Virus record (IMG/VR): IMGVR_UViG_3300046524_000568
Direction: 5' to 3' (one strand)
Length of the DNA: 20,000 nucleotides
Source: an uncultured virus (IMG/VR IMGVR_UViG_3300046524_000568)
Lineage: Duplodnaviria; Heunggongvirae; Uroviricota; Caudoviricetes
The notes under the pieces are model-generated. The model did no database searches. It had not been told where the DNA came from and saw only the letters and a list, made by a program, of their open reading frames with translations. How positions within the stretch are numbered: the stretch's first letter is position 1; every line of letters starts with the position of its first letter. Position numbers and translations under genes: made by a program. Of the stretch, positions 2,752-19,196 are shown piece after piece.

Positions 2752-2813
2752 GACGTTTTGATACGATGACCGCCGCGCCGAGCCGCGCATCGGGAACCAG
2801 CGAAGGAACAGTT

Positions 2814-3589: not shown

Positions 3590-4441
3590 ATGCTGAAGAA
3601 GAAACTCATCGGCCTGGCACTGCTGGCCTCGTTTGGTACGGCAGGTGCATTTGCCGCTTCCACCACCCCCGCGGCTGACGCGCCGTACTCTGGCGCAGTG
3701 CCGGCCGTGCTGCAACACGCACAGCAGGTAGGCGGGTTGGAAATCTACAAGAATTTCCCGGCCGCGGGCGGCCTGCATGGCTGGGTCGTGAAGGACCGCT
3801 CGTCGAAGTACATTATCGTCTACACGACGCCGGATGACACCGTTCTGCTGGCGGGCATCGCGCTCGATGCTACCGGCAAGAATCTGAGCAACGACTACAC
3901 GAACCAGTATGTCCCGGCGACGGACTACACGCCAGCGTACAAGGCATTCACCACGGAAGCGACGAGCGTGCTGTGGGGTAACCCTAAGGCGCAGGCTGAA
4001 ATGACTATCGTGACGGACCCGAACTGCCCGTTCTGTCAGCGCCTCGAGGCGATGCTCATTAAGGCGGTCGACGACGGCAAGCTGAAGGTGCACCTGGTGC
4101 CGGTAGGCTTCGAAGCACCGGATTCGCCGCAAAAGGCTGCTGGCCTGCTGCAGACGAAGGACGTGAGCGCATACATGACCTCGGACATCGTGCGCGGCCC
4201 GGTCGAGCAAAGCACGGACGCGGACCTGGCTGCGAAGGTCAAGGCGAACTGGGCGCTGATGTCGAAGTACGGCCTGAACGGTACGCCGGCTGTGTTCTAC
4301 ATGACGGGCAAGGCTGGCTCGCAGACGCTGAACGTTTCGCCGGGCGTGCCGAACATGACGGAACTGCTGACCAAGCTGGGTCTGGAAAGCTACCTGCCCG
4401 CAATTAAAGCGGACCCGAAGTTCGCGCAGTACGCACGCTAA
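3590..4441 (+). CDS. dsbG: Periplasmic thiol:disulfide interchange protein, DsbG/DsbC family
   Basis: Sec signal peptide (…AGAFA). DsbG-like N-terminal domain (GLHGWVV..IVYTTPD..LLAG), DPNCPFC active site and GTP cis-Pro loop. GGAG RBS. Confidence 0.85.
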   Translation: MLKKKLIGLALLASFGTAGAFAASTTPAADAPYSGAVPAVLQHAQQVGGLEIYKNFPAAGGLHGWVVKDRSSKYIIVYTTPDDTVLLAGIALDATGKNLSNDYTNQYVPATDYTPAYKAFTTEATSVLWGNPKAQAEMTIVTDPNCPFCQRLEAMLIKAVDDGKLKVHLVPVGFEAPDSPQKAAGLLQTKDVSAYMTSDIVRGPVEQSTDADLAAKVKANWALMSKYGLNGTPAVFYMTGKAGSQTLNVSPGVPNMTELLTKLGLESYLPAIKADPKFAQYAR

Positions 4442-4497: not shown

Positions 4498-4537
4498 AAG
4501 AAAGGAGGCAGGCGCGAGCCCGCCTCCTTTTTTATTT
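4498..4537. terminator. Bidirectional rho-independent terminator between the convergent dsb and P1 genes
   Basis: AAAGGAGGC(a)GGC-gcga-GCC(c)GCCTCCTTT, flanked by A- and T-runs. Confidence 0.8.
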
Positions 4538-6238
4538 GCCCCAGAGATAGTAGGTCGTCGGCGCGCTGAACGCACCGAATCCTTGGCCGCCCTGAATCCC
4601 CAAACCGATTGCAAAATCATCACAGCCATTGAGGGTTGCGGTCGCGGTCTCATCGACGGCCCATCCGTATTTCGCGCCGGCACAGACCCCGTTACTCGGC
4701 GTATATTCGCCAAAATTGAAGCCAAAGCGCGCCTGCTTGATGAGGGTGCCTCCGCCCAGGTCTTTCGGGTAGTTCGTCGCATAGCTCGACCAGTTTGGCG
4801 AGACTTGTGGAACGCCAGCAACGTCGCCGCTGACGACGGTCATTTTCGCATCCGCCATCGCCGACATTGCTGTCTGGGTGCTTACCGCTGTGGTTCTGAG
4901 CGTCGATTCATTTGCCGCCTGCAGCACGAGCGCGGAGACCGGTACTTTGCTGAACGCGCTCGATACGTAGTTGCCGTCAGCCATACTGGCTCCCGTCGGG
5001 TCGTTCAGGGTCGTGCCTGTCCAGTATGCGGTGCCCCAGCGCAGCGTGCTCGAATCGTTCTGCGCCTGCTTCATGAGAAGCATCCATCCGCCGCCGTTCG
5101 TGGTCTGGTTGCAGTAGACGTCCATGGTCGAACCACCAACGGCAACACGGTAGACGCCATTGCCCGTCGCACCGGAATAGTAGTACGGCGCGCTCGGCGC
5201 CAGGTACGCCTGGCAACTCGCCGCATACGTGCCGTCCGACCATGCGCGATAGCTTCCGTTGTTCGCCACGTTCGCATTGACCGACATGCTGTAGGCCTTG
5301 CTGCCCGAGCTGAGCAGATACGCAGCCTTCACCCCGAACGACGCGGCCCCGACCGTTGTGGGCGAGCCAGAAATTACGCCATCGCCCGTGAGCGACAACC
5401 CGCCGGGCAGCGCACCGCTCGAGAGCGACCACGTGATGCCGGCGCCATTGCCGGCGTACGCGGTGTCACCGGTGACCTGAAGGTTCTGCTTGAGGTCGTA
5501 GCTGTACGCGGTGCCCGCCGTGAGCATGGGGAACGACACATCCGAGAGCGCCACGGTAACGGTCGCAACAACCAACTGATACGTGCGCTGGCCGGCGCGG
5601 TTCATGTAGCTGGCCTGCACGGCAACAGGGAACGTGCCGCCAGCCGTAGGCGTCCCGCTAAGCGTGCCGTTTGCATTGAGCTGCACCCCCGCGGGCAAAG
5701 GGCCGCTCATAAGCGACCACGTCACCTGCGCGGGGGTGTATTGCGGGTCGCCGGCCACCTGCAGATTCTGCTTCAGGTCATAGCTGTACGGTGTGCCCTG
5801 CACGCCCGGCGGGAGCGTCGCGCTCGCGAGGCCCACGACGATGTCGGCAATCATCACCTGGTAAGCCTGCTGACCTGCTTTGGTCTTGTACGCCGCCAGC
5901 ACCTGGAAGCTCGATGTCGCGGCGGCAGTCGGCGTGCCGCTGAGTTTGCCGTCGCCGCTCAGGGAGAGCCCAGCCGGCAGCGCGCCACTGGCCACGGACC
6001 AGCGAACACTGCTCTGGCTGTACGACGGGTCTCCGAGCACCTGGAGCACCGAATTGAAATCGAAGCCTCCATACGCGCGTCCGACGACGCCCGTCGGAAG
6101 CGAATATGCGTTGAGCGTGACGAGGATATTGCCCGCCGTGGCCGAGCGGCTGGGAACCGGCACAACAACAAAATAGTCGGAGGCGAAGGTGGAAAAGCTT
6201 GCGGCCGCGAGCAATGCGGCACTGACGGTCTTTTTCAT
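4532..6238 (-). CDS. P1: secreted putative adhesin/lectin; 3 He_PIG/Ig-like repeats + fibrinogen-like YCxxxxxGGGW neck + head type A
   Basis: Signal peptide MKKTVS..TFA, then SDYFVVVPVPSR. Three 'WS...G.LP.GL.L...G.LSGTPT' repeats. ASCQAY..GVY..VYCNQTTNGGGWMLLMK. Ends TYYLWGK. Confidence 0.9.
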   Translation of the reverse strand: MKKTVSAALLAAASFSTFASDYFVVVPVPSRSATAGNILVTLNAYSLPTGVVGRAYGGFDFNSVLQVLGDPSYSQSSVRWSVASGALPAGLSLSGDGKLSGTPTAAATSSFQVLAAYKTKAGQQAYQVMIADIVVGLASATLPPGVQGTPYSYDLKQNLQVAGDPQYTPAQVTWSLMSGPLPAGVQLNANGTLSGTPTAGGTFPVAVQASYMNRAGQRTYQLVVATVTVALSDVSFPMLTAGTAYSYDLKQNLQVTGDTAYAGNGAGITWSLSSGALPGGLSLTGDGVISGSPTTVGAASFGVKAAYLLSSGSKAYSMSVNANVANNGSYRAWSDGTYAASCQAYLAPSAPYYYSGATGNGVYRVAVGGSTMDVYCNQTTNGGGWMLLMKQAQNDSSTLRWGTAYWTGTTLNDPTGASMADGNYVSSAFSKVPVSALVLQAANESTLRTTAVSTQTAMSAMADAKMTVVSGDVAGVPQVSPNWSSYATNYPKDLGGGTLIKQARFGFNFGEYTPSNGVCAGAKYGWAVDETATATLNGCDDFAIGLGIQGGQGFGAFSAPTTYYLWGK

Positions 6239-6268
6239 GGAAAGCGTGGGTGGCGTTGTCGTTGCAAT

Positions 6269-6274
6269 GTATAG
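6269..6274 (-). promoter_or_regulatory. CTATAC box 30 nt upstream of the P1 start
   Basis: Same hexamer at the same spacing as before P3, P5, P6 and P7. Confidence 0.55.
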
Positions 6275-6320
6275 CTTCGACCGGCGTAACCAGCTGCGGC
6301 ATGCCGGTCAAATCGGCCGG

Positions 6321-7763
6321 TTATTTGGCCCAGAGGTACAGCGTCGCCGGTTGCCAGGCTCCCGGGTTGTTGTTCATCCAGGACAGCCCATAATGTGAGC
6401 CATATCCGCCCAGGCCGCCGCACACATCGTTGGACCCGTTCAATGGGCTCGATGCCAGATTCTCATTAGACGACCATCCCCATCGCGCGCCACAGGGCAA
6501 ATCAGTGCCTGCGACGACGTCTACAGTCTCCATGAAGTTGAATCCGAAGCGGGACTGGGTGATGACCGTCCCAGCCGGATAAGTCGTCGCGTGAATGAAC
6601 CAGTCCGGGTCAACCTGAGGCACGCCGTTGGCATCGTCGTAAAGGGTGCGGTTGGCGTTGCTGAACGCGACGAGCGGGGTCGACGCGGCGCGTGAATACG
6701 TCTTCACCGTCGACTCATTGGCCGCCTGCAGCAGGTACTGCGTTGCGCTCATTCGTGCAAACATTGCTGATACGAAGTTGCCGTCGCTCATGTTCCGCCC
6801 GGCCGCAGTGTCGTTAAGCACCGTTCCGGTCGTCCAGTAGGTCGTATCCCCCTCGAGCGTGGCCCCATCGCCCTGCGCCTGTTTCATCAGCAACGTCCAT
6901 CCGCCGCCATTCGTCGTCTGGTTGCAATACACGTCCGTTGCCGCGCCGCTGACACTGATGCGATACACACCGTCACCGGTCGCTCCGGAATAGACGTAAG
7001 GCGCGCTCGGCGCCAGGTACGCCTGGCAGCTCGCCGCGTATGTGCCGTCCGACCATGCCCGATAGCTTCCGTTGTTCACGACGTTCGCTTGAACCGACAG
7101 GCTGTAATTCGCCGAGCTCGAACCCTCCTGATAGCTCGCCTTGAGGGTGAAAGGAAAAGTTCCTGCTGCGGTCGGCGTTCCGGTGAGCTTTCCATCGGCG
7201 CCGAGCTGCACCCCGGTGGGCAACGCACCGCCGCTCAGCGACCAGCCTACCAACGTCGGCGAGTATTGAGGGTCACCCGTAACCTGGAGATTCGGCTTCA
7301 CGTCCCAGCTGTAGGCCGCTCCCGCCACGCCGCCGGGAAGGGTCGCCCCAGCCAGGCTCACGACAAGCTCCGCCACAAGCACCTGATAGCTTTGCTGGCC
7401 TGCCTTGGTCTTGTAGGCGGCCATGACCTGAAAGCTCGATGATGCCGCCGCGGTCGGAGTGCCTGAGAGCTTTCCGTCCGCGCCAAGTAGGAGGCCCGCT
7501 GGCAATGTGCCCCCCACCACGGACCAGCGAACACTTCCCGGCGTGTACGCGGGGTCACCGAGTACCTGCAAGACAGTGTTGAAGTCGAAGCCCCCATATG
7601 GGCGGCCGACAACGCCAGCCGCCAACGAATAGCCGTTGAGCGTGACGAGAATATTGCCCGAGCTCGCTGCACGGTTTGGCACCGGAACGACGACGAAATA
7701 GTCGGCGGAGAAAACAGAGATGCTGGTGGCCGCGAGCACGGCGGCGAGTAGTGTTTTTTTCAT
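6321..7763 (-). CDS. P2: secreted Ig-repeat (2) + fibrinogen-like neck + head type A
   Basis: Same architecture as P1. Starts 6 nt after the P3 stop. Ends PATLYLWAK. Confidence 0.9.
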   Translation of the reverse strand: MKKTLLAAVLAATSISVFSADYFVVVPVPNRAASSGNILVTLNGYSLAAGVVGRPYGGFDFNTVLQVLGDPAYTPGSVRWSVVGGTLPAGLLLGADGKLSGTPTAAASSSFQVMAAYKTKAGQQSYQVLVAELVVSLAGATLPGGVAGAAYSWDVKPNLQVTGDPQYSPTLVGWSLSGGALPTGVQLGADGKLTGTPTAAGTFPFTLKASYQEGSSSANYSLSVQANVVNNGSYRAWSDGTYAASCQAYLAPSAPYVYSGATGDGVYRISVSGAATDVYCNQTTNGGGWTLLMKQAQGDGATLEGDTTYWTTGTVLNDTAAGRNMSDGNFVSAMFARMSATQYLLQAANESTVKTYSRAASTPLVAFSNANRTLYDDANGVPQVDPDWFIHATTYPAGTVITQSRFGFNFMETVDVVAGTDLPCGARWGWSSNENLASSPLNGSNDVCGGLGGYGSHYGLSWMNNNPGAWQPATLYLWAK

Positions 7764-7769
7764 GTGAAA

Positions 7770-9404
7770 TTAGCGAACGAAAAGCCAACCTTGCTGCTTG
7801 TTGATATAGCCGCCCCACCCCATCGGCCAGCCCGAGGCAGCATCGTCACTCCCGTCGTTGTAGCCGCTGTTCCATCCATTCGGAAAGAGGCCATAGACGC
7901 CAGAGGTTTCCGCCCAATCGCGGAGGAAGAACGCATCCGTGCGTGCGGTGAATCCAATGCTTCGGGCCATACCGAAATTCGGATTACCGCCTGCTACCGG
8001 CGTCGGATTACTCAACTGAATACCTGTCGAGGCCCAACTGCCCGGGAATCCACTCGGCAAATTGGTCTGATAGACGTATGCGCCCCACGTGAAATTTCCC
8101 GCAAAATTCCCGAGGAGGCTCTGAGTCGGATTGAGCGCCGCTGTATTGCCGAGCGAATACGGCACAGCTTCATTTGTCAGCGAACCTTGTGCACTGGTCC
8201 AGCCGAAGACGCCTGTCCCGCCGCTCGCGCTGCGGCCAACAAGGGTCCACCCTCCGCCTGCCGTGGTCATGTCGCAATAGACGTCGGTTGGCGTTCCACC
8301 AAGGCTGATGCGATAAACACCGTTCCCGGTTGCTCCCGTGTACAGATAAGTGCCAGTGGGATTCCGATAGGCGTTGCAGGTCGCTGCAAAAGAGCCATCC
8401 GACCACGCGCGGTGACCGCCGTTCGCTACGACGTTGGCCGTCACCTTCAGAGCGTAGCTCGCCGGCGCGGACGTCTTGGTCTTGTAGCTGGCCGAAACCT
8501 GAAGCGTGTTCACGCCGGCTGTGCTCGGCGCGCCGGCGATAACGCCGGCCGCATCCATCGACAATCCGGCAGGAAGTGGACCGGCTGCGCTCCAATTTAC
8601 GCCAGCTCCGGCGCCGGCATACCCAGCGTCTCCAGACACGGCGACGTGCTGTTTCAGGTCGTAGGTGTACGCGGCTCCCGCCGGCGCGTCAGGCAATGTT
8701 GCAGAAGCCAGGCTGATGGTGATTGCGCCAACCACAATCTGGTAGCTTTGCTGCCCGGGCTTGGTGAGATAGCTCGCCTTGACTGTGAAAGAATAGGTCC
8801 CCTCCGCGCCTGGCACCCCAGAAATCGTGCCGTCAGAATTGAGCTGAAGACCGGCAGGCAAGGCGCCGCTCGCTAGCGCCCATGACACCTGCGAAGACGT
8901 ATATTGCGGGTCACCTGTGACTGCCAGGAGACTCTTCAGGTCGTAGCTGTATTGCGCGCCCTGAACGGCAGCCGGCATGGCCGTGTTCCCTGCCAATGCG
9001 ACGTTGATGTCTGCGACGAAAACCTGATACGCCTGCTGGCCCGCTTTTGTTTTGTAGCTTGCCATCACCTGGAAGCTCGAGGTGGCGGCCGCAGTCGGTG
9101 TGCCGCTCAACCTACCGTCCGCGCCAAGCGAGAGTCCCACCGGCAGCGCGCCGCCAGCGAGGGACCATCGTACGTTGCTGGTGCTAAAGCTTGGGTCGCC
9201 CTTGACCTGTAGAACCGCCTTGAAATCAAAGCCTGCGTAAGACCGGCCAAGAACGCCCGCCGGCAGCGAATATCCATTGAGCGTAACGAGGATATTGCCC
9301 GCGGTCGCTGTTCGATTTGGGACAGGAACGACAACGAAATAGTCCGACGCAAACGCCGAAATGCTGCCGGCGGCGAGCAAGGTGGCAAGGATGGGTTTTT
9401 TCAT
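7770..9404 (-). CDS. P3: secreted Ig-repeat (3) + fibrinogen-like neck + head type B
   Basis: Start set at MKKPIL (9404) by homology to the paralogs. YCDMTTAGGGWTLVGR. Ends GWLFVR. Confidence 0.9.
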   Translation of the reverse strand: MKKPILATLLAAGSISAFASDYFVVVPVPNRTATAGNILVTLNGYSLPAGVLGRSYAGFDFKAVLQVKGDPSFSTSNVRWSLAGGALPVGLSLGADGRLSGTPTAAATSSFQVMASYKTKAGQQAYQVFVADINVALAGNTAMPAAVQGAQYSYDLKSLLAVTGDPQYTSSQVSWALASGALPAGLQLNSDGTISGVPGAEGTYSFTVKASYLTKPGQQSYQIVVGAITISLASATLPDAPAGAAYTYDLKQHVAVSGDAGYAGAGAGVNWSAAGPLPAGLSMDAAGVIAGAPSTAGVNTLQVSASYKTKTSAPASYALKVTANVVANGGHRAWSDGSFAATCNAYRNPTGTYLYTGATGNGVYRISLGGTPTDVYCDMTTAGGGWTLVGRSASGGTGVFGWTSAQGSLTNEAVPYSLGNTAALNPTQSLLGNFAGNFTWGAYVYQTNLPSGFPGSWASTGIQLSNPTPVAGGNPNFGMARSIGFTARTDAFFLRDWAETSGVYGLFPNGWNSGYNDGSDDAASGWPMGWGGYINKQQGWLFVR

Positions 9405-9433
9405 GAGTTGCACGGGGGTTTGAAATGTATCCC

Positions 9434-9461
9434 GTATAGGAAAATCTTAGATTGATGCCAT
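9434..9461 (-). promoter_or_regulatory. Putative promoter of P3-P2: ATGGCA-17-TATACG, CTATAC box 29 nt upstream of the ATG
   Basis: Motif and spacing are shared with the other array genes. Confidence 0.5.
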
Positions 9462-9462
9462 G

Positions 9463-9493
9463 AGAAAGGGAGGCAATTTAGCCTCCCCTTTCT
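9463..9493 (-). terminator. Rho-independent terminator after P4
   Basis: AGAAAGGGAGGC-aattta-GCCTCCCCTTTCT hairpin, 15 nt past the P4 stop. Confidence 0.75.
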
Positions 9494-9508
9494 GCTGCCC
9501 GAGCGGGC

Positions 9509-11749
9509 TTACCGCACCCACATCGTGAAGTTGCAGTTGGCGATGTCGCCCGTGCAGTATTGCGAAGTGTTGTTGCCGTTGCCGAGTACGTTGATGCCGA
9601 GAGACCAGTCTCCACCAGTCCGGTTGGTCGAGAAGTACGTGTTCCACTGCCCGCCGTCGTCGGAGATGCCGTAGTAGAACGGCTGACTCAGGTTGGCCGC
9701 ACGCATGGGCGCCGTGAACGAGGTAGTCGCGTATGTGACGGTCGGCGGCGTGCCGGTCATCGCTTGCGTGAGCAGCGTGGTGTGCGAATAAGCGAAAGGC
9801 GCCACGAACCGCGTCTGGTTGATGAGCCCATCGGATTTCAGGCGATAGAGTCCGCCGTTGCGCACCAGGTTGATGGTCGCGTCGGCGAGTTTGAAGGTCA
9901 TGCCCGTCGACGCATCTGCGGCCGCAGAGCGTGTCAGATTCAGTGCGCCCGCGGTGTTCCATCCAGTGATGTTGCCGCCGAGGCCGCGCATCGCCAGTGT
10001 CCAGCCGCCGCCATCGGAGGTCATGTCGCAGTATGCATCGGTGACCGTTCCGCCAGTCTGCAAGCGGTACACCCCGTTGCCCGTCGCGCCGGAATACAGG
10101 TGCCCCGCCGTGGGATTCAGATATGCATTGCAACTCGCGGCGTACGTGTTGTCCGACCAGGCCCGATAGCCCGAGAACTGCGAGAGAATTTGCGTCACCG
10201 CAAAGGTGTAGCTCTGGGTGGCAGACTTCCCCTTGTATGCGGCCTTCACCTGCACCGGGTTCGTGCCCTTTGCACTCGGCGTGCCTGTCACGGTGCCATT
10301 GCTGTTGAGGTTCAATCCCGTGGGAAGCGCGCCGCCAGCAATCGACCAACTTACGTTGGTGCCATTTCCGGCATAGGCGTTGTCACCAGTGATACTGAGA
10401 TTTGGCTTGAGGTCCCAGCCATTTCCGCTGTTGTACGCTTGGCCAATCGTGACGCCAGGCGGCGACGAGGTCGCGCTGGACAGTGTCACCGTGATGGCGC
10501 CAACCACCACGGCATAGCCCTGCTGCCCCGTCGAGGTCTTGTATGCCGCCTGAACGGTGAACGGCGTGCTTCCATCGCTTTCAGCGCTCGGAGTGCCGGA
10601 GATGACGCCGTCTGCGCCCAGACTCAGCCCAGCGGGCAAGCTGCCACTCGCAACACTCCATGTCACACCTGTGCCTGCGTATGCCGCGTCGCCGGTAATG
10701 GCCAGCTTCGGCTTCAGGTCGTAGCTGTACGGGGCGCCTTGCACGCCAGCGGGAAGCGCCGCGCCGTTGAGCGTGACCACGATAGCTCCGACGACAACCT
10801 GGTAGGCCTGCTGCCCCGCCTTTGTCTTGTACGAGGCCTGAACGGTAAACGGAGTGCCGGTGTTTGCAGCCGTTGGCGTGCCGGAGATAACGCCATCCGC
10901 GACCAGGCTCAGGCCTGCGGGCAAGCTGCCACTCGCAACACTCCACGTGATGCCCTGGCCTGTGTACGCAGCGTCTCCTGTGATGGCGAGTTTCGGCTTC
11001 AGGTCATAGCTGTATGCAGCTCCTTGAATGCCTGCGGGAAGGGCTGCGCCGCTGAGGGTAACCACAATGGCGCCGACGACAACCTGGTAGGCCTGCTGCC
11101 CCGCCTTCGTCTTGTACGAAGCCTGGACGGTAAATGGTGTGCCGGTGTTTTCAGCCGTAGGCGTGCCGGAGATAACGCCATCCGCGCCTAGGCTCAGGCC
11201 TGCAGGCAAGCTGCCACTCGCAACACTCCATGTGATGCCCTGGCCCGTGTACGCAGCGTCGCCCGTGATGGCGAGTTTCGGCTTCAAGTCATAGCTGTAT
11301 GCAGCTCCTTGAATGCCCGCAGGCAGACTTGCCGAAGCGAGCGACACAACCAGATTGTTGACCGTCACCGCGTAGTTCTGTTGCCCGGCCTTGGTCTTGT
11401 AGGCCGCCATCACCCCAAAGTTCGAGGTGCCCGCCACCGTGGGAGTGCCCGTCAGTTGACCGCCAGAACTGAGCGACAGACCTGCCGGCAGCGCGCCCGT
11501 TGACACGGACCAACGCACGTTTGAAGGCGTGAAGTTCGGGTCGCCTTTGACTTGCAGCACTGAGTTGAAATCGAACCCGGCGTATGCGTCGCCCGCGACA
11601 GCGTTCGGCAGACCATACGAGCTCAGCGTGACGAGAATGTTACCCGTGGTGGCCGAGCGGTTCGGCACGGGAACCACAACGAAGTAGTCTGATGCCATCG
11701 CGGAAACAGAGGCTGCGGCGATGAGCGCAGCAAGAATAGTTTTTTTCAT
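9509..11749 (-). CDS. P4: secreted Ig-repeat (5) + fibrinogen-like neck + head type C
   Basis: Signal peptide and SDYFVVVPVPNR. Five Ig-like repeats. YCDMTSDGGGWTLAMR. Ends NCNFTMWVR. Starts 13 nt after the P5 stop. Confidence 0.9.
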   Translation of the reverse strand: MKKTILAALIAAASVSAMASDYFVVVPVPNRSATTGNILVTLSSYGLPNAVAGDAYAGFDFNSVLQVKGDPNFTPSNVRWSVSTGALPAGLSLSSGGQLTGTPTVAGTSNFGVMAAYKTKAGQQNYAVTVNNLVVSLASASLPAGIQGAAYSYDLKPKLAITGDAAYTGQGITWSVASGSLPAGLSLGADGVISGTPTAENTGTPFTVQASYKTKAGQQAYQVVVGAIVVTLSGAALPAGIQGAAYSYDLKPKLAITGDAAYTGQGITWSVASGSLPAGLSLVADGVISGTPTAANTGTPFTVQASYKTKAGQQAYQVVVGAIVVTLNGAALPAGVQGAPYSYDLKPKLAITGDAAYAGTGVTWSVASGSLPAGLSLGADGVISGTPSAESDGSTPFTVQAAYKTSTGQQGYAVVVGAITVTLSSATSSPPGVTIGQAYNSGNGWDLKPNLSITGDNAYAGNGTNVSWSIAGGALPTGLNLNSNGTVTGTPSAKGTNPVQVKAAYKGKSATQSYTFAVTQILSQFSGYRAWSDNTYAASCNAYLNPTAGHLYSGATGNGVYRLQTGGTVTDAYCDMTSDGGGWTLAMRGLGGNITGWNTAGALNLTRSAAADASTGMTFKLADATINLVRNGGLYRLKSDGLINQTRFVAPFAYSHTTLLTQAMTGTPPTVTYATTSFTAPMRAANLSQPFYYGISDDGGQWNTYFSTNRTGGDWSLGINVLGNGNNTSQYCTGDIANCNFTMWVR
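10470..11325 (-). repeat. Three tandem ~285 bp (95 aa) Ig-domain repeats inside P4
   Basis: TCATAGCTGTATGCAGCTCCTTGAATGCC occurs at 11004 and 11289 (period 285). The proteins of the two units are nearly identical; the third unit (~10719) is slightly more diverged. Boundaries approximate. Confidence 0.85.
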
Positions 11750-11762
11750 TGTTCGCTTCGGA

Positions 11763-14294
11763 TTACCGAACCTTCAGCTCGGTTTTCACCATGGACTCGT
11801 ACTGGCCTGTCCAGGTGTTCCACTCCATACCGTCGGCATACGACGTGTGGACACCATTGAGATAGCCGCCATTCAGATTCGACTGGTGGCAGGAGTTGTA
11901 CCACCAGGCACCATGGAACGTGACCGCGCAGTTTTGCGGATACAGGTCGTGGTCGACGTCCTGAGTCGAGAACTGCATGCCGTTCTGATAGCTCAGCGAA
12001 TCACCAATTGTGCCTCCCGAATACGTCAAGGAGATGCGGTAGGCATCCGCCGCCGTAGCGACCTTGAACCCTGCGTACTTGGCATAACCCGTCGCGCCGG
12101 TATATCGCGTCAGGTCGATGCGCAAGGTGGTGGCACCCGCGGCGGTGAGCGCAGCCAGCCGGTCGTTACCCATCCAGTATTCGGTCGCCGCGCTACCAAA
12201 GCCGGCCGCGTAGGCGGCGTAGCCCTGGTAGAAGTTGACCGCGCCATTGGTGCGGCGCTGGAAGGTTGTCCATCCCCCGCCGTCGTTGGTCATGTCACAC
12301 CACACATCGAAAGACGTAAGCGGACCGGACCCGTCCACGTCGATTCGATAGATGCCATCGCCTGTTGCGCCGGTGTACGCGTATCCCGTCTTGCCGCTGA
12401 AATACTCGAGACAGCTCTTTGCGTAGGTGCCATCTGACCACGCGCGATAGCCCGTGTTTTGTGCGACACCCACGGTGTAATTAATGGTGTAGCTCTGACT
12501 CGCTGTTTGGGTCTTGTACGTAGCGGTGAGCTTCAACGGATTGGTGCCCGCAGCCGACGGTGTGCCGGTCACGGTGCCGTTGCTGTTGAGTGTAAGGCCG
12601 GTGGGCAGTGCGCCGCTCGACACCGACCAGGCTACCCCCACGCCATTTCCCGCATACGTCGCGTCGTTCGCAACCGACACATTGGGCTTGAGGTCCCAGC
12701 CGTTTCCGCTGTTGTAGGCGGCGCCGTACGACGCTGCCGGCGCCGTGCTGCCGTTGAGCGTAACCGTGATGGCGGCCACCACAATGGCATAGCCCTGCTG
12801 ACCGGACTTCGTCTTGTAGGCCGCCTGAACGACAAACGGTGTACCTGTGCTTGCGGCTGTTGGCGTGCCGCTGATGACGCCGTTTGCGCTCAAACTCAAG
12901 CCCATCGGCAGCGCGCCAGAGACAACGCTCCACGTCACACCTGAGCCCGTGTATGCTGTGTCACCCGAGACATTCAGCTGCGGCTTCAGGTCATAGCTAT
13001 AGGCCGCGCCCTGCTCGCCCGCAGGCAGCGCCGCGCCGCCTAGCGCGACCGTGATGGCCCCAACGATGATTGAATAGTTTTGCTGCCCGGTTTTCGTCTT
13101 GTAGGCTGCCTGAATCGTGAATGGCGTGCCAACGCTCGCATCCGTCGGCGTGCCGGAGATGACACCGTCCACGCTCAGGCTTAGGCCGGCCGGCAGCGTG
13201 CCCGAGGCAACGCTCCATGTAATTCCGGTGCCCGTGTACGCTGCGTCCCCCGAAACACCCAGCTTGGGCTTCAGGTCATAGCTATATGTCGAGCCCTGAA
13301 CGCCGTTGGGCAACGCGGCAGTGTTCAACACGACGGTGATTGCGCCAACAAGAATCGAATAATTTTGCTGGCCCGACTTGGACTTATAGGCAGCCTGAAC
13401 TGTGAACGACGTACCCGAGCTTTCATCGGTCGGCGTGCCCGAGATGACACCGTCGGCACCCAGACTTAATCCCGCAGGCAAGCTACCGGATGCCACGCTC
13501 CACGTGACGCCCGCGCCAGTGAAGGCAGCGTCGCCAGAGATGCCCAGCTTGGGCTTCAGGTCGTAGCTGTACGCTGTACCTTGCATGCCGTTGGGCAGCG
13601 TCGCTCTGCCAAGCACAACTGTGATAGCGCCGACGAAGACCTGATAATCCTGCTGGCCCGCGCTATTCAGATAACTCGCCTTCACCGTGAATGGAAACGT
13701 ACCTTCGGCTGTCGGGGTTCCGGTGAGCGTGCCGTCACTGTTGAGCGCGAGCCCCGCGGGCAAGGTGCCGATGCTCGACCAGGTCACCTGGCTCGGCGAG
13801 TACTGCGGGTCACCGCTCACGCTCAGCTGCGTCTTGAAGTCGTAGCTGTATGCTGCACCCTGCTGGCCCTGCGGTAGACCCGAGGTAGCGAGTGAGACAT
13901 TCACAGTGGCAACCAGGACCTGATACTGCTGCGCGCCGGCCTTATTCTTGTAGGTGGCGAGCACCGAGAAGGACGATGAGCCGCCAACCGTCGGCGTGCC
14001 GCTCAGTTTGCCGCTCGAGCTCAGCGTGAGTCCCGCCGGCAACGCGCCGGCCGACCAGTGAACCCCAGCTGCAAAAAAGGTCGGGTCGCCTTTGACCTGA
14101 AGCACCGTATTGAAGTCGAAACCACCATACGGACGGCCGGCGACGCCCGACGGCAGCGAATAGCCGCTGAGCGTTACGGTGATATTGCCCGACGTAGCCG
14201 TGCGGTTCGGCACTGGAACCACGACGTAATAGTTGGCGGCGAACGCCGGGGCAATGCTAGCCGCGAGCAGCGCCGCAAGGATGGTCTTTTTCAT
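11763..14294 (-). CDS. P5: secreted Ig-repeat (6) + complete fibrinogen C-terminal (FReD; ficolin/FIBCD1-like) domain
   Basis: Start at MKKTIL (14294) by homology. Head has VWCDMTNDGGGWTTFQRR..NF..Y..GFG..EYWMGND..LRIDL..Y..F.V..Y..GDSL..NGMQFST.D.DHD..NCA..GAWWY..CH.SNLNG.Y..SYADG.EW..W.G..S..TELKVR. Confidence 0.92.
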   Translation of the reverse strand: MKKTILAALLAASIAPAFAANYYVVVPVPNRTATSGNITVTLSGYSLPSGVAGRPYGGFDFNTVLQVKGDPTFFAAGVHWSAGALPAGLTLSSSGKLSGTPTVGGSSSFSVLATYKNKAGAQQYQVLVATVNVSLATSGLPQGQQGAAYSYDFKTQLSVSGDPQYSPSQVTWSSIGTLPAGLALNSDGTLTGTPTAEGTFPFTVKASYLNSAGQQDYQVFVGAITVVLGRATLPNGMQGTAYSYDLKPKLGISGDAAFTGAGVTWSVASGSLPAGLSLGADGVISGTPTDESSGTSFTVQAAYKSKSGQQNYSILVGAITVVLNTAALPNGVQGSTYSYDLKPKLGVSGDAAYTGTGITWSVASGTLPAGLSLSVDGVISGTPTDASVGTPFTIQAAYKTKTGQQNYSIIVGAITVALGGAALPAGEQGAAYSYDLKPQLNVSGDTAYTGSGVTWSVVSGALPMGLSLSANGVISGTPTAASTGTPFVVQAAYKTKSGQQGYAIVVAAITVTLNGSTAPAASYGAAYNSGNGWDLKPNVSVANDATYAGNGVGVAWSVSSGALPTGLTLNSNGTVTGTPSAAGTNPLKLTATYKTQTASQSYTINYTVGVAQNTGYRAWSDGTYAKSCLEYFSGKTGYAYTGATGDGIYRIDVDGSGPLTSFDVWCDMTNDGGGWTTFQRRTNGAVNFYQGYAAYAAGFGSAATEYWMGNDRLAALTAAGATTLRIDLTRYTGATGYAKYAGFKVATAADAYRISLTYSGGTIGDSLSYQNGMQFSTQDVDHDLYPQNCAVTFHGAWWYNSCHQSNLNGGYLNGVHTSYADGMEWNTWTGQYESMVKTELKVR

Positions 14295-14324
14295 GGAGGT
14301 GATGCCGAAAAATAGTATTCTTTG

Positions 14325-14365
14325 GTATAGCGTTATATTACCATTTTGCCAATTTTGTAATTGGC
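14325..14365 (-). promoter_or_regulatory. Putative promoter of P5-P4 (TTGGCA-17-TATACC) with a GCCAATT-N4-AATTGGC palindrome over the -35
   Basis: CTATAC at 14325-14330, 30 nt upstream of the ATG. Perfect 7-bp inverted repeat at 14348-14365. Confidence 0.6.
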
Positions 14366-14382
14366 TCATCCTCGACACGAAT

Positions 14383-14408
14383 AAAAAATAGAGGCCCCGA
14401 GGGGCCTC
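14383..14408 (-). terminator. Rho-independent terminator after P6
   Basis: GAGGCCCC-ga-GGGGCCTC, followed on the minus strand by TATTTTTT. Confidence 0.8.
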
Positions 14409-14421
14409 CCTTGCCAGAGCA

Positions 14422-16152
14422 TCACTTAGCCCAGAGATACAGCGTTGCAGGCTGCCAGGCGCCCTTGTTGTTGTTCATCCATGTCGAACCGTATGCGTCG
14501 CCATACGCTCCCAATCCACCGCAGGCGTCATGACTACCCGGCGCGGCGCCCGCCGCATCCTGATTGGCGGCCCAGCCCCAGCGAGCGCCACAACGGATTG
14601 CGGTCGGAAACGGACTCCAGATTTCCCCGAAATTGATGCCGAAGCGTGCCGCGTTGATGACATCGCCCAAGGGCATCGTGCTCGCGTGGATATACCAGCT
14701 CGGCCCCGCCGCTTGCGGCACGCCAGCATCGTCACTGTACGTCACGCGTGTGCTATTGCTGAATGCTGCGAGTGCCGTCGACGCGGCGCGGTTATAGACC
14801 TGGCGCGTGCTTTCGTTGGCCGCTTCGAGCCGGTATTGCGTCACCGGCAACGTGGAGAACGCACGAGATACGAGGTTTCCGTTGTTCTTGTTCAGGTTCG
14901 CCGGGGTGTCATTGAGTGTCGTGCCGCTCGTCCAGTAGGTCGAGTCGCCCTGAAGCGTGGCGCCGTCTCCCGCCGCCTGCTTCATCAGGAGCATCCAGCC
15001 ACCGCCTTCGGTCGTCATGTCGCAGTAGACGTCCATCGGCGAGCCGGTCGGGTTAATCCGGTAAACCCCGCTGCCCGTTGCGCCCGCGTACTGGTATGAA
15101 CCGCTCGGAGCGAGGTACGCCGCGCAGGTCGACGCATAGGTACCGTCAGACCAGGTCCGGTATCCGCCGAAGTCCTTGAGATTGGCGGTCACCGACATGC
15201 TGTAGTTTGCCGGCGAAGTGGTCTTGGCCTTGTAGCCGGCGGAGACCGCAACGCTCGCCGAGCCGACCTTCGTGGGCGTGCCGGTGATGCGACCATCGGT
15301 GCTTAGTGCGAGTCCCGCAGGAAGCGTTCCTATCAGATTCCAGGTCACATTCGAGCCATCCCCTGAGTAGGCTGCGTCCCCTGAAACAGTCAGGTTCTGC
15401 TTCAGGTCGTAGGCCATCGCCGTGCCCGCGGTCAGCGCCGGGACCGTGGCGCCACTCAGACTCACCGTGATAGCGCCTACAATAACCTGATAGTTTGCCT
15501 GCCCCGTCTTCGAGAGGTAGGCGGCGCGGACAGTGAACGGAAAGGTCCCCTCGGCATTTGGGATGCCCGTAATCGTGCCATTCGAGTTGAGTTGAAGACC
15601 CGCCGGAAGCGAGCCGCTCGCAAGTGCCCAGGAAACCTGCGCCGGCGTGTATTGCGCATCACCCGTCACATTCAGACGGGACTTGAGGTCATAGGTGTAT
15701 TGCGCACCCTGCACGCCGGCCGGCATCGCGGAATCGGCTGCCAGGACAACGCTGACGTCGCTGACGAGGACCTGATAGGCCTGCTCTCCAGCCTTCGTCT
15801 TGTACGCCGCCATCACCTGGAAGCTCGATGTTGCAGCCGCAGTCGGAAAACCGGTAAGCTTGCCGTCTGCACTCAGGGTCAGACCTGCGGGCAGCGCGCC
15901 AGCTACCACCGACCAGCGTACGCTGCTCGCGCTGTAACCAGGGTCGCCGAGCACCTGAAGCACGGAATTGAAATCGAATCCGGCGTACGCACGGCCGATA
16001 ACGCCCGTCGGCAACGAGTAGCCGTTGAGCGTTACCAGGATGTTGCCGGCGGTCGCCGAGCGATTCGGCACCGGCACCACGACGAAATAGTCGGACGCAA
16101 GCGCAGACATGCTGCTCACCGCCAGTAAGGCGGCGATAATGGTTTTCTTCAT
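14422..16152 (-). CDS. P6: secreted Ig-repeat (3) + fibrinogen-like neck + head type A
   Basis: Same architecture. YCDMTTEGGGWMLLMKQ. Ends GAWQPATLYLWAK, as in P2. Confidence 0.9.
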   Translation of the reverse strand: MKKTIIAALLAVSSMSALASDYFVVVPVPNRSATAGNILVTLNGYSLPTGVIGRAYAGFDFNSVLQVLGDPGYSASSVRWSVVAGALPAGLTLSADGKLTGFPTAAATSSFQVMAAYKTKAGEQAYQVLVSDVSVVLAADSAMPAGVQGAQYTYDLKSRLNVTGDAQYTPAQVSWALASGSLPAGLQLNSNGTITGIPNAEGTFPFTVRAAYLSKTGQANYQVIVGAITVSLSGATVPALTAGTAMAYDLKQNLTVSGDAAYSGDGSNVTWNLIGTLPAGLALSTDGRITGTPTKVGSASVAVSAGYKAKTTSPANYSMSVTANLKDFGGYRTWSDGTYASTCAAYLAPSGSYQYAGATGSGVYRINPTGSPMDVYCDMTTEGGGWMLLMKQAAGDGATLQGDSTYWTSGTTLNDTPANLNKNNGNLVSRAFSTLPVTQYRLEAANESTRQVYNRAASTALAAFSNSTRVTYSDDAGVPQAAGPSWYIHASTMPLGDVINAARFGINFGEIWSPFPTAIRCGARWGWAANQDAAGAAPGSHDACGGLGAYGDAYGSTWMNNNKGAWQPATLYLWAK

Positions 16153-16180
16153 CGCGGATAAACGGTTAGGATGTTCTTTG

Positions 16181-16208
16181 GTATAGCATTATATATGCTT
16201 TTTGTCGA
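16181..16208 (-). promoter_or_regulatory. Putative promoter of P6 (TCGACA-17-TATACC)
   Basis: CTATAC at 16181-16186, 28 nt upstream of the ATG. ATATAA(C/T)GCTATACCAAAGAA is shared with the P5 upstream region. Confidence 0.6.
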
Positions 16209-16423
16209 TGAACATCTTAAGACCAGCCTTGCCCCGGACTTGCGTGGCGCATTTTCAGCTCTTGGTGCTCTCCGTCAGGTGCTCGAGTCGACGAAAAGCA
16301 CCCGGAAAGACAGCGAGCGAGCTTCTTTCCGGATTTCAGCGTCATCCGTCAATACCCCAAACCGTTCGTTTTTGAGATGCGGCCGCTCAGTAGCCTCAGG
16401 CCAGTTGGGGTGAATTTCCCTGG

Positions 16424-16455
16424 GAAAAAGCGAAAGGGAGGCTAAGCCTTCCCTT
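16424..16455 (-). terminator. Rho-independent terminator after P7
   Basis: AAGGGAGGC-taa-GCCTTCCCTT hairpin with a T-run on the minus strand. Confidence 0.7.
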
Positions 16456-16480
16456 GTGCGGCGAAATTTGCGTTACCGGC

Positions 16481-18313
16481 TCAGCGCACGAATACCGCCC
16501 ATCGCCAGGCCTCAAGCGCCGCCTTGCCGATGGTCCGGTTTCCGCTAAACAACTGCTCGGGCGCAAGCCCCCAGTAGGTCCACGGCAACAGCGTATACAG
16601 CCCGGTCGAAGAGTTGAAGGTCGGCGGCCCCATGTACAGATGGTTGCCCCAGTCGTCGTTGTTCGGACCCATCACCTGCGCGCCCGCCTCATAGGCGTAG
16701 GTTCCGCACGCTGCTCCGCCAGTGCCTGCCGGCCAGTTCACGCCACACCCGTGCCAGTTGCCATCAGACCATACCGTCGAATCGGCGCTGCCGAAGCGAA
16801 ACAGGTTCTGGTCGCTCGGGTCTGTGCTGTGGTTCAACGGGCTCGCCCACCCTTCGGTGGTATCGGTCATCAGGTCATAGAGCTGCGTGCCGGGCGCAGT
16901 CACCGGTCCGCGGATGTAATTTGCCGCCGCCTTGAGCAAAAGCGTGTCGCTGTACAGGCTGGTCACGCCACCGGCACTCTTCAGGAACATGTAATCAGTG
17001 ATGGCGGCCTGCACCGCGGTGCCGCGATAGAACGAGCTGGTGCCCGATGTCAGGCAGGTGTCGGTCAGCGAGGAGCACACGCCGGTCGTCCCCTTACCCA
17101 TCACGTCCGAGCGCATGCCGTTGAAATCCGACTTCAGCACCAGCGTCCAGCCGCCGCCGTCCGTTGTCTGGTCGCAGTAGACGTCGACCGTCGAGCTGCC
17201 AGGTTTGATGCGATAGGTGCCGTCACCGGTCGCACCCTGGTAGCGATAGTTGCTGCTTGTTGGCATGCGATAGCCTTTGCAGCTCGAGGCGTACGTGCCA
17301 TCAGACCACGCGCGGTAGCCAGACTGCTGCTGCAACTGGGCCACTACCGGGAATGCGTAAACTTTGCTGTCCGACTTGCTCTTGTAGGTCGCCTTGACTG
17401 TGACAGATGTGCTGCTCGGCGTGGTCGGAGACCCGGCGACGACACCCGTATTGGCGTCGAGTGCGAGCCCGGCAGGCAGCGTACCGCTATCAACGGACCA
17501 CGAAACGCCGGCGCCCGCCTGATAGGCTGCGTCGCCCGTCACGGTGAGCGACAGTTTCAGGTCGAGCCCTGAATAGGTCTGGCCGACGATGCCCGTGGGT
17601 GGCGTGGCGTTTGCGAGACTGACGATGATGGCGCTCACCACGACAGAATAGGTCTGCTGGCCGTTCCGGTTTTTGTATGCAGCCTGAATCGTGAACGGCG
17701 CGCCGGTGTTCTCTGCGCTCGGCGTACCGGAGATGACGCCATCCGCGCGCAGGCTCAAGCCCTCCGGCAGACTGCCCGACATCAGGCTCCAGCTCACGCG
17801 TGCGGCGCTGTATGCCGGGTCGCCGGTGACTGAGAGCCGCGGCTTCAGGTCAAAAAAGTAGGCCGCGCCCTGTTCGCCGCTGGGCAAGTTCGCGGTCGCC
17901 AGCGCGATGCCGAGATTGTTTACGGTGACCGTGTAGGTTTGCTGCCCGGCCTTGGTTTTGTAGGCAGCCATAACCTGGAAATTGGACGCGCCGGCTGCCG
18001 TCGGCGTGCCGGTCAGCCTGCCGTCCGCGCCGAGAGAAAGGCCTGCAGGAAGCGCGCCGCCGGTAACCGACCAGTGAACGCTGCTGGCGTCAAATCCGGG
18101 GTCCCCAAGCACCTGCAGCGCAGTGTTGAAGTCAAATCCTGCGTAGACGTCCCCGACCAAGCCTTGAGGCGGGGTGACGGCGCTCAACGTCACGAGAATA
18201 TTGCCTGACGTTGCCGAACGATTCGGCACAGGCACGACAACGTAGTAGTCGCTCGAGAACGCAGGCAGGCTGGTCGAGAGCACAGCCAAGGCAAGGAGCG
18301 TTTTCTTGAACAT
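16481..18313 (-). CDS. P7: secreted Ig-repeat (3) + fibrinogen-like neck + Cys-containing head type E
   Basis: Start at MFKKTLL (18313; alternative 18328), supported by the signal peptide, homology and CTATAC spacing. YCDQTTDGGGWTLVLK. Ends WAVFVR. Confidence 0.88.
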   Translation of the reverse strand: MFKKTLLALAVLSTSLPAFSSDYYVVVPVPNRSATSGNILVTLSAVTPPQGLVGDVYAGFDFNTALQVLGDPGFDASSVHWSVTGGALPAGLSLGADGRLTGTPTAAGASNFQVMAAYKTKAGQQTYTVTVNNLGIALATANLPSGEQGAAYFFDLKPRLSVTGDPAYSAARVSWSLMSGSLPEGLSLRADGVISGTPSAENTGAPFTIQAAYKNRNGQQTYSVVVSAIIVSLANATPPTGIVGQTYSGLDLKLSLTVTGDAAYQAGAGVSWSVDSGTLPAGLALDANTGVVAGSPTTPSSTSVTVKATYKSKSDSKVYAFPVVAQLQQQSGYRAWSDGTYASSCKGYRMPTSSNYRYQGATGDGTYRIKPGSSTVDVYCDQTTDGGGWTLVLKSDFNGMRSDVMGKGTTGVCSSLTDTCLTSGTSSFYRGTAVQAAITDYMFLKSAGGVTSLYSDTLLLKAAANYIRGPVTAPGTQLYDLMTDTTEGWASPLNHSTDPSDQNLFRFGSADSTVWSDGNWHGCGVNWPAGTGGAACGTYAYEAGAQVMGPNNDDWGNHLYMGPPTFNSSTGLYTLLPWTYWGLAPEQLFSGNRTIGKAALEAWRWAVFVR

Positions 18314-18365: not shown

Positions 18366-19196
18366 CTAGCGTTCCTCCGCGCGCGAGTCCCCAGCAGGTG
18401 CCGGCTGGTCGGGCTGCGCAGGTTCAGTTGCAACGGCTGCTGTGTCCTCGGGCTGGCCCTTGTCCTTGGCCGCCGGTGCGTCAGCCCCATCCAGGAACCA
18501 CATGCCCATCGCGAAACCACCAATGTTGGCCAGAAGGTGGAGCACCGCATTTGGTAGCTGGTAGCTCCAAAACGACACCGGCGACTCACCACCGCGAAAG
18601 CCGGTGATGATTGCGCAAACAACTGTGAGCACCAGTGAAATGACAAAAAGGGTCATCCAGCCATCGTGCCTTTCCTTCTCATTCGTGGAGTTCACCTTCG
18701 AGAGATAACCCAGCGACACGGTCAGACTGAACACCACCGGCGAGATGGCGCAATAAAGTGCAACACGAGAGAAGAAAGTCGCGTCGAGCGGCAGTGTTTT
18801 TTCGAAATACGAGAAGTAGATAACGAGGAGCCAGGCCGTCAGCAGCAACATGGGGGCGTCGACCAAGGGTCGCACGCGGTAGTGCCCCGTCTTGCTCACG
18901 CGCAGGTAGATGTGGGTCAACCAGAACACACCGACCGCTCCGGTCAACACCGTGTAGTGCGAGGCAGTTGCGTCGCCGAGAGCGGGAATCAATACGCCCA
19001 ACCCTTCAAAACCGGTCACGATGCCGTAAATGGCCAATTCCCACAGCGTCGACCCGATTTGCGGCAATTTGAGCTGGCCCAGCACCAGCGTCAGTAGCAG
19101 CACCGAAATTAGAACACCCAGAAAAGACTGCACGATGCGTTTGGGCGAGACGGGCTTGCTGCTGCTCGAATCGACAGGGGTGGATGAAGCGCTCAT
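18366..19196 (-). CDS. Integral membrane protein (~7 TM), unknown function
   Basis: About seven hydrophobic segments, an AAAAGGA RBS, and a low-complexity Pro/Ala tail. Confidence 0.85.
   Translation of the reverse strand: MSASSTPVDSSSSKPVSPKRIVQSFLGVLISVLLLTLVLGQLKLPQIGSTLWELAIYGIVTGFEGLGVLIPALGDATASHYTVLTGAVGVFWLTHIYLRVSKTGHYRVRPLVDAPMLLLTAWLLVIYFSYFEKTLPLDATFFSRVALYCAISPVVFSLTVSLGYLSKVNSTNEKERHDGWMTLFVISLVLTVVCAIITGFRGGESPVSFWSYQLPNAVLHLLANIGGFAMGMWFLDGADAPAAKDKGQPEDTAAVATEPAQPDQPAPAGDSRAEER

Follow-up and report, generated by a model that had tools for sequence, protein, structure and literature searches.

A tandem array of seven genes for candidate stalked binding proteins with exchangeable heads in a Burkholderia-like soil bacterium

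The window analysed here, a stretch of 20,000 nucleotides (nt) of DNA filed as an uncultured virus of the Caudoviricetes (IMG/VR record IMGVR_UViG_3300046524_000568), carries between positions 4532 and 18313 an array of seven intact open reading frames (ORFs), P1 to P7, all of them on the minus strand (Table 1). Each encodes a protein composed of a signal peptide, a conserved N-terminal module (N-module), a stalk of immunoglobulin (Ig)-like repeats, a conserved neck and a C-terminal head. A first-pass annotation, made without database searches, had described the array as seven intact, co-oriented paralogs sharing one architecture, and both the ORF calls and the alignment bear this out. Gene starts were set at a conserved MKK, the ORFs of P3 and P5 being open as far as positions 9413 and 14378, respectively. 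The intergenic gaps measure 6-328 nt and contain no ORF of 100 amino acids (aa) or more on the gene strand, and in base composition the array is not distinct from its own flanks. We ascribe it to a Burkholderia-like soil bacterium, and its neighbourhood, of the rtcR/rtcB kind, is chromosomal-looking.

Table 1. Positions of the array genes, of the parts that they encode, and of other features of the window
Feature	Position	Strand	Length (aa)	N-module	Ig repeats	Neck	Head	Remarks
P1	4532-6238	-	568	5837-6238 (with signal peptide)	repeats 2-3, 5267-5818	5075-5257	4535-5074	head class t0 (intelectin-like class, by model)
P2	6321-7763	-	480	7362-7763	repeat 2, 7077-7343	6888-7070	6324-6887	head class t0
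P3	7770-9404	-	544	9003-9404	8427-8981	8238-8420	7773-8237	head class t3
P4	9509-11749	-	746	11348-11749	repeats 2-5, 10184-11329	9992-10174	9512-9991	head class t6
P5	11763-14294	-	843	13899-14294	repeats 2-6, 12465-13880	12261-12455	11766-12260	head class t1, canonical ficolin-like fibrinogen-related domain
P6	14422-16152	-	576	15751-16152	15178-15729	14986-15168	14425-14985	head class t0
P7	16481-18313	-	610	17909-18313	17330-17890	17138-17323	16484-17137	head class t2, largest head, six cysteines
dsbG-type thiol:disulfide interchange gene	3590-4441	+						signal peptide, CPFC motif; convergent with P1
Multi-pass membrane protein gene	18366-19196	-	276					ends 52 nt before the P7 start
Terminator-like hairpin with T-run	14390-14409	-						between P6 and P5
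Hairpin	9468-9487							between P4 and P3
Hairpin	4510-4525							after P1 and dsbG

All seven proteins begin with a signal peptide of the KK-hydrophobic-AxA type, as read by eye, and the mature N-terminus conforms in each of them to (S/A)(D/N)Y(F/Y)VVVPVP(N/S)R, followed by a strongly conserved first Ig domain, so that the signal peptide and conserved N-peptide reported earlier are indeed present throughout. Compared all against all, together with those of a related locus (L016, see below), the N-modules are 61-87% identical, as against about 20% for heads of different classes, in keeping with the proposed organization of a constant scaffold with variable heads. The stalk is made of He_PIG repeats (Pfam PF05345), which form 2-6 stretches in every one of the proteins, with whole-protein E-values from 1.4e-18 to 7.6e-65 (5.7e-28 for P1) and scores of 67.6-215.9 bits at a cut-off of 24; Pfam finds 3, 2, 3, 5, 6, 3 and 3 repeats in P1 to P7, exactly the numbers counted in the first-pass annotation. 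The predicted structure of the stalk is a series of β-sandwich domains that match SraP and cadherin-type modules. P4 contains a 285-nt tandem repeat (10515-11317, 2.8 copies, 85% matches) corresponding to its Ig repeats 2-4, by which the stalk grows in length through duplication of the repeat unit, and the repeat counts and domain coordinates confirm that stalk length varies independently of head class.

The neck motif is likewise found in all seven, its invariant columns including R..W.D...A..C..Y and G.ATG.G.YR....D..C..T..GGGW, and all seven match NCBIfam NF040941 ('GGGWT_bact', fibrinogen-like YCDxxxxGGGW), six of them above the cut-off (38.5-48.3 bits) and P1 just under it (28.8 bits, the curated cut-off being 30). 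The alignment and this family thus agree with the earlier recognition of a conserved neck in each paralog. The accompanying statement that no named system has such an organization stands in so far as a literature search found no characterisation of the family, but the neck itself already bears a name, and NCBI labels its carriers 'fibrinogen-related protein'; the proteins under NF040941 are of the same family as those of the array, and their records carry automatic names only. The first Ig domain of P6 (N-module residues 33-131, the N-peptide excluded) shares 40-45% identity with the Ig domain that major tail proteins of actinophages contain (61 records of Gordonia, Rhodococcus and Nocardia phages). 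There are also weak matches to PHROG families of unknown function, namely phrog_29085 (about 1e-5, residues 17-102 of P3 and P6) and phrog_10681 (the neck of P6).

To classify the heads, the parts following GGGW of 137 neck-bearing proteins and ORFs, drawn from the window, the related loci and the database matches, were clustered at 35% identity over 60% of the length. Fourteen classes were obtained, five of which occur in the window: t0 (P1, P2 and P6), t1 (P5), t2 (P7), t3 (P3) and t6 (P4). The t0 heads share 42-61% identity with each other (61% between P2 and P6) and head pairs from different classes of the window 17-27%, which upholds the original division into five types, one of them common to P1, P2 and P6. 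The part after GGGW comprises 152-216 aa and does not align between most of the paralogs; an earlier estimate of ~170-210 aa for the variable region was roughly right, the measured range being wider. All cysteines are located in the neck or the head and none in the stalks. One pair (head positions 13 and 47-51) occurs in the seven proteins without exception, a second (head positions 174-215) in six of them, P3 having the sole head without it, and the heads end in hydrophobic-x-hydrophobic-K/R, the C-terminus of P5 aligning with the last strand of ficolin-2. These shared disulfide pairs and the C-terminal motif hint at a common head topology.

P5 is the only one of the seven proteins with a full-length match to Fibrinogen_C (PF00147; 3.1e-60, 204.2 bits at a cut-off of 22, profile positions 10-219 of 221). 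A phmmer search of the PDB with its head returned ficolin-2 (1.4e-57), FIBCD1 (1.8e-56) and tachylectin-5A (3.8e-47), aligned over residues 30-232 of the 232-residue head. In the alignment with ficolin-2, where STQDVDHDL... of P5 stands opposite STKDQDNDL..., both an acidic stretch, DxDxD, and the aromatic-bearing loop Cys...Cys-His are kept; in lectins of the fibrinogen type these form the Ca2+ site and the acetyl pocket. Fibrinogen domains of the FIBCD1/tachylectin-5A type bind acetyl groups and chitin, and by homology the P5 head probably binds acetylated sugars (N-acetylglucosamine, chitin) via a Ca2+-stabilised pocket. Its closest relatives of similar length outside the family are animal proteins, from Mytilus (49-50% identity), rotifers (44-48%) and spiders (techylectin, 46-48%), with an overall range of 42-50% for mollusc, rotifer and spider fibrinogen-related proteins.

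In P1, P2, P3, P4, P6 and P7, Fibrinogen_C matches at profile positions ~9-55 only, with 18.4, 20.6, 25.3, 17.9, 31.7 and 22.1 bits, respectively, and the parts after GGGW of P2, P3, P4 and P7 gave no Pfam match even at an E-value of 10. The notion of fibrinogen-fold heads throughout the array therefore holds for the complete domain of P5 and for the A-subdomain with which all the heads start, but six of the heads are non-canonical by sequence; their kinship to the fibrinogen fold at the level of predicted structure is possible. For P1, P2 and P6, comparison of models indicates an intelectin-like fold over the whole carbohydrate-recognition domain, the sequence similarity to intelectins being limited to the fibrinogen-like start, and these heads may bind microbial glycans. 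A Foldseek search with the whole P2 model gave only Ig-type matches among the matches listed, the head match being seen only with VIA-align; no canonical fibrinogen chain was among the 50 matches listed per VIA-align run, which does not exclude a fibrinogen fold. Among the models of BFVD, two cyanophage proteins of ~300 aa, E3SSV2 (Prochlorococcus phage P-HM2) and A0A1D8KMS1 (Synechococcus phage S-CAM8), match the P2 model with a TM-score of 0.50 by target over 269-306 columns, the neighbouring matches being Ig-only, and they may be phage proteins with a head similar to that of P2.

In the model of P4 in the ESM Atlas, the head-bearing residues 529-746 have TM-scores of 0.58-0.70 (by query) to clusters with fibrinogen-C proteins from chordates, Myxococcota and phages among their members, two of these being phage clusters; on this lead, which is not a test, the P4 head is probably a divergent fibrinogen-type fold. 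The Atlas gives a weak lead for the P7 head as well (0.90, to a cluster 29% of whose members carry Fibrinogen_C), and in a search among proteins of 154-490 aa 5 of its 59 matches span 57-100% of the head, the remaining 54 spanning 21-44%. Neither Pfam nor NCBIfam reveals a catalytic domain in the seven proteins (the distal parts of P2, P3, P4 and P7 were scanned to an E-value of 10). With a ficolin-like domain in P5 and an intelectin-like fold predicted for P1, P2 and P6, the earlier expectation of heads of binding type, not enzymes, is sustained.

A metagenome scan yielded 24 loci, among them L016, with five complete genes and a truncated remnant, L017, with five genes, and L019, with at least eight and one more nearby. 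The array of the window adjoins rtcR, whose product is a sigma-54 activator acting on the RNA-repair operon, and a gene of the DUF6283 kind (1150-3209), and the same rtcR, DUF6283 and rtcB genes flank the arrays of L016 (13854-18506) and L019 (14162-18976), which marks these arrays as occupants of an orthologous site in related genomes; one chromosomal site thus hosts arrays of differing content in three genomes. They differ in gene number, gene order and Ig count. Read from the rtcR side, the window has heads t0, t0, t3, t6, t1, t0, t2 on 3, 2, 3, 5, 6, 3 and 3 Ig repeats, and L016 has t0, t6, t3, t1, the remnant and t2, with 3, 4, 3, 6 and, after the remnant, 6 repeats. Far from being invariant, then, the array varies in copy number and content between orthologous loci. 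The remnant of L016 (2692-3472), which lies frame-broken between two intact genes and retains only the N-peptide and part of the first Ig domain, is direct evidence of gene decay within the array.

P1 and the terminal gene of L016 share 79% identity overall, and between the two arrays heads of the same class are 62-78% identical. The neck follows the head (82-90% identity, except 69% for t6), and the N-module follows the head class only in part: on a tree of N-modules head class needs 10 changes (minimum 5; shuffled mean 13.3) and genome of origin 9 (shuffled mean 13.1), and a single branch, supported at 98%, brings together genes of three head classes. From the head-class changes and this branch it follows that scaffold and head have been reassorted. 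Contigs of four metagenome runs were compared with the array. One run covers the whole of it (94% of sampled words) and may be the source sample, and others contain 90-99% similar pieces of some genes. Metagenome contigs that join stalk or N-module segments of different paralogs (e.g. 5908 to 12558, the shorter side measuring 50 letters) and stretches of thin coverage are indistinguishable from cross-mapping of paralogs from other strains, and nothing was inferred from them. In one contig of another rhizosphere metagenome, 809 letters replace 43 nt of the intergenic region between P7 and P6 (16413-16457), a strain difference between two array genes.

Beyond these arrays, P1 has 1575 database relatives at an E-value of 1e-3 among 8000 candidates scored, and 117 of the best 120 possess the N-peptide (99 with and 18 without the neck). 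Named members belong to Burkholderia ubonensis, B. multivorans, Paraburkholderia spp. and Castellaniella sp., and their automatic labels read 'Ig domain-containing protein' or 'fibrinogen-related protein'; P1 shares 75% identity with a protein of B. ubonensis and 70% with one of B. multivorans. Neighbouring accession numbers (KVP39835/KVP39838, MBU9200069/MBU9200070, MDN8078809/MDN8078811) indicate that the genes are clustered in named relatives too. A survey of 22 further scaffold-bearing proteins found 20 without the neck. Their heads include RCC1 (three), Laminin_G_3 (four), Gly_rich_2 (three) and TSP1 (one), which are binding modules like those of the array, the remaining proteins having ASH/HYDIN-type Ig modules or no further recognisable domain, and there is no enzyme family among the heads of the 22. 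What is constant in the family is therefore the N-module with the He_PIG stalk, and the fibrinogen-type neck and head are one of several cassettes. The TSP1-bearing protein (L034, 4993-10104) has 1704 aa, with the N-module, 12 He_PIG repeats and, after these, a TSP1_ADAMTS match (3.4e-24); the thrombospondin type 1 domain is typical of animals.

An N-module profile search of 1.84 billion representatives found the N-peptide in 17 of 141 newly listed proteins, and since the search was swamped by giant He_PIG-repeat proteins it gives no family size. Among species-representative genomes a single locus was detected, in Castellaniella, with true members in one of 401 sampled genomes of the order to which that genome belongs, which hints that presence of the family varies between strains; the scan pattern is, however, present in only 12 of the 27 named Burkholderia and Paraburkholderia members, so that absence from the representatives is not proven. 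No match to P2 was found by tblastn in 72,556 plasmid records, and megablast of the whole window against plasmids gave only an 82-nt fragment of rtcR. A role in conjugation, suggested in the first-pass annotation, finds no support in these searches or in the chromosomal-looking rtcR/rtcB setting.

We think it rather likely that the array is a repertoire of exported modular binding proteins. Each protein would probably be exported by the Sec route, to judge from its N-terminal sequence, the disulfides of its head would form in the periplasm, perhaps with the aid of the DsbG encoded next to the array, and the protein would then leave the periplasm. The conservation of the N-module (the DYFVVVPVPNR peptide and the first Ig domain) suggests that it most likely docks all paralogs to one partner, which would be an anchor or an export machinery. 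With no LPXTG motif and no β-barrel that Pfam recognises in the seven proteins, any anchor must act in trans via the N-module. The stalk of 2-6 He_PIG domains, whose Ig fold is recognisable, would serve as a spacer that holds the head away from the docking point. The heads may be regarded as lectin modules built on a shared fibrinogen A-subdomain, and the seven genes would provide one cell with several specificities and several reaches, with which it could attach to or agglutinate other organisms, e.g. fungi, bacteria, roots or protists. The family would evolve by birth and death of genes, duplication of stalk repeats and reassortment of scaffold and head.

Among known systems, the animal fibrinogen-related lectins (ficolins, FIBCD1, tachylectin-5A and the fibrinogen-related proteins, FREPs) resemble the array proteins in the complete domain of P5 and in the A-subdomain and disulfide of all seven. 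Unlike them, the array proteins are bacterial, Sec-exported by prediction and without a collagen-like or coiled-coil oligomerisation region, and six of the seven heads are non-canonical by sequence; the head of P5 is preceded by six He_PIG domains and by no collagen repeat, and P5 is thus ficolin-like in its head only. The stalk also differs from that of animal FREPs, consisting of bacterial, cadherin-like He_PIG Ig domains in place of domains of the Ig superfamily. An excerpt of PMC7588048 describes snail FREPs as diversified families with Ig-type domains before the fibrinogen domain, and they are a convergent Ig-plus-fibrinogen family. The X-type lectins (human intelectin-1, Xenopus XEEL and lamprey serum lectin) are alike in fold to the t0 heads, at 13-15% identity. 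According to an excerpt of a paper on a lamprey intelectin-type lectin (PMC9682848), bacteria hold a fibrinogen domain and two of the four intelectin motifs, a possible prototype, from which it appears that bacterial relatives of intelectins have been noticed already but not studied. The stalk-and-lectin adhesins (SraP; intimin/invasin) have a similar layout, but the array proteins lack a serine-rich region, an LPXTG motif and a β-barrel anchor recognisable by Pfam, and their genes, unlike those of SraP, intimin and invasin, are tandemly multiplied with interchangeable heads. A literature search found no characterisation of this bacterial family, its arrays or its N-module. The array combines known folds with a bacterial scaffold and a locus organization that are undescribed.

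Fibrinogen-related lectins and intelectins are known as lectins of animal innate immunity. A much bolder proposal, which we hold to be rather unlikely, is that some Burkholderiaceae of the rhizosphere carry a bacterial counterpart of the FREP/ficolin/intelectin repertoire of invertebrates: recombining stalked lectins with animal-type heads would be docked by their shared N-module to a common anchor, or co-assembled in mixed multivalent particles, and would hold non-self surfaces such as fungal chitin, galactofuranose or foreign lipopolysaccharide, and the family, whose heads comprise fibrinogen, intelectin-like, RCC1, LamG and TSP1 types, would mark a route of exchange between kingdoms. Independently of this proposal, one bacterial head is almost as similar to human ficolin as the heads of invertebrates are, it occurs together with intelectin-like heads, and animal-type heads stand on a common bacterial stalk that is multiplied at a locus of differing content in related genomes. 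Should the heads bind glycans, they would add a new class to the lectins and adhesins of Burkholderia, offer a tractable bacterial source of intelectin- and ficolin-like modules for glycan probes, and make a test case for modular binding repertoires built by shuffling of scaffold and head. The conserved N-module points to a docking or export partner that is worth finding.

Several observations weigh against a repertoire of exported binding proteins. Only two head classes out of five have a confident fold: the model that AlphaFold2 gave for the head of P7, based on a 14-row alignment, has a predicted local distance difference test (pLDDT) value of 38.5 and is unusable, and that of P4 is a lead from the Atlas. 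The intelectin likeness of the t0 heads is one of fold level only. In profile-profile comparisons with hhalign the head classes are joined only over the first 60-105 residues, i.e. neck, A-subdomain and little more, alignments with the canonical class stop at head residues 62-98 and the profile of t3 aligns over residues 1-98 only, so that common ancestry of the distal head parts is not established. Residues 1-29 of the N-module are unstructured in the monomer model; a complex prediction for three copies of residues 21-135 scored 0.00, to which we attach no weight either way. The 11 flank ORFs scanned in the 20-kb window include no gene for an anchor, an usher, a barrel or a dedicated secretion system, nor was a β-barrel, usher or chaperone found in the seven proteins, the 11 window ORFs or 29 flank ORFs of L016, L017, L019 and L030. 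RCC1 and TSP1 heads elsewhere usually bind proteins, so that 'lectin' may be too restrictive a term for the whole family. Moreover, repeats in the DNA of the array are at most 83% identical; the paralogs are thus old, and the array is a maintained set and not a rapidly diversifying one.

Instead of holding on to other organisms, the proteins might harm them, as antagonistic lectin-like bacteriocins that are released, bind glycans of competitors and kill or inhibit them, the array being an arsenal with different target ranges and no immunity genes; we regard this as quite unlikely. The LlpA-type lectin bacteriocins of Pseudomonas and Burkholderia are not known to have immunity genes, and signal peptides, lectin-type heads of diverse classes and the lack of small companion ORFs in the gaps of 6-328 nt would all suit such proteins. 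A precedent for an antimicrobial intelectin exists in intelectin-2, presented as a broad-spectrum antimicrobial lectin in an excerpt of PMC12800186. Pfam and NCBIfam, however, find no known bacteriocin or toxin domain in the seven proteins, and with PADLOC added there is no toxin family that would place them among the polymorphic toxins (PADLOC has no match in the seven, in dsbG or in the gene upstream of P7). A long Ig stalk with a conserved N-terminal docking module suits tethering better than a diffusible toxin, and the fold differs too, LlpA-type proteins having that of monocot mannose-binding lectins.

The acetyl-group/chitin-binding type of fibrinogen domain in P5 could also serve nutrition, the heads holding chitin or other glycans for polysaccharide foraging in the manner of carbohydrate-binding modules in trans. 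He_PIG-like Ig domains occur in glycoside hydrolases, and the stalk matches GH107 fucoidanases; but no gene for a glycoside hydrolase, a transporter or sugar utilisation was found in the same 11 window and 29 flank ORFs, and seven different heads at one locus without enzymes are unlike known utilisation loci, which makes this a doubtful explanation with little probability. That the proteins are phage-derived receptor-binding proteins or tailocin fibres, whose N-module attaches to the particle while the heads select target cells, is very improbable: their constant N-terminus and variable C-terminal head reproduce the layout of phage fibres, and the two phage clusters near the P4 head, the PHROG matches and the tail-protein Ig domain fit this origin, but all seven have Sec signal peptides, needless for phage fibres, no gene for phage structure or lysis was found in the flanks scanned, the P2 and P5 heads had no tblastn match in 50,697 phage records at an E-value of 1e-3, and the tail-protein match is confined to a generic Ig domain.

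As to the neighbourhood of the array, the dsbG-type gene reaches 129.3 bits on the DsbG equivalog NF008657 of NCBIfam (cut-off 124). Such a gene also adjoins the array in L016; in L019, the six flank ORFs scanned include no thioredoxin-family gene. DsbG may act as a helper of the heads, which bear cysteines. The membrane protein encoded upstream of P7 has a weak match to Frag1/DRAM/Sfk1 (24.6 bits, below the cut-off of 30.3). Hairpins with T-runs between array genes (Table 1) suggest that the array comprises several transcription units and is not a single operon; by pattern match only, a scan for the terminator consensus found 20 sites, compared with 12.3 +/- 3.9 in shuffled sequences. Rfam and tRNA scans of the window gave no matches. 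A diversity-generating retroelement was considered and rejected, there being no near-identical template/variable pair (direct repeats of 83% identity at most) and no reverse transcriptase in the flank ORFs scanned. On the plus strand, ORFs with translations rich in R and A lie opposite P1 (4583-6274, 563 aa) and P4 (9560-11191, 543 aa), and they look like the shadow ORFs typical of GC-rich genes, not like genes. The single-Ig member of Castellaniella sp. (L001, 7637-9391) is located ~3 kb from a DDE transposase of the insertion-sequence type and adjoins a gene annotated as 'HAD domain in Swiss Army Knife RNA repair proteins', a second RNA-repair-related neighbour, which may be a coincidence.

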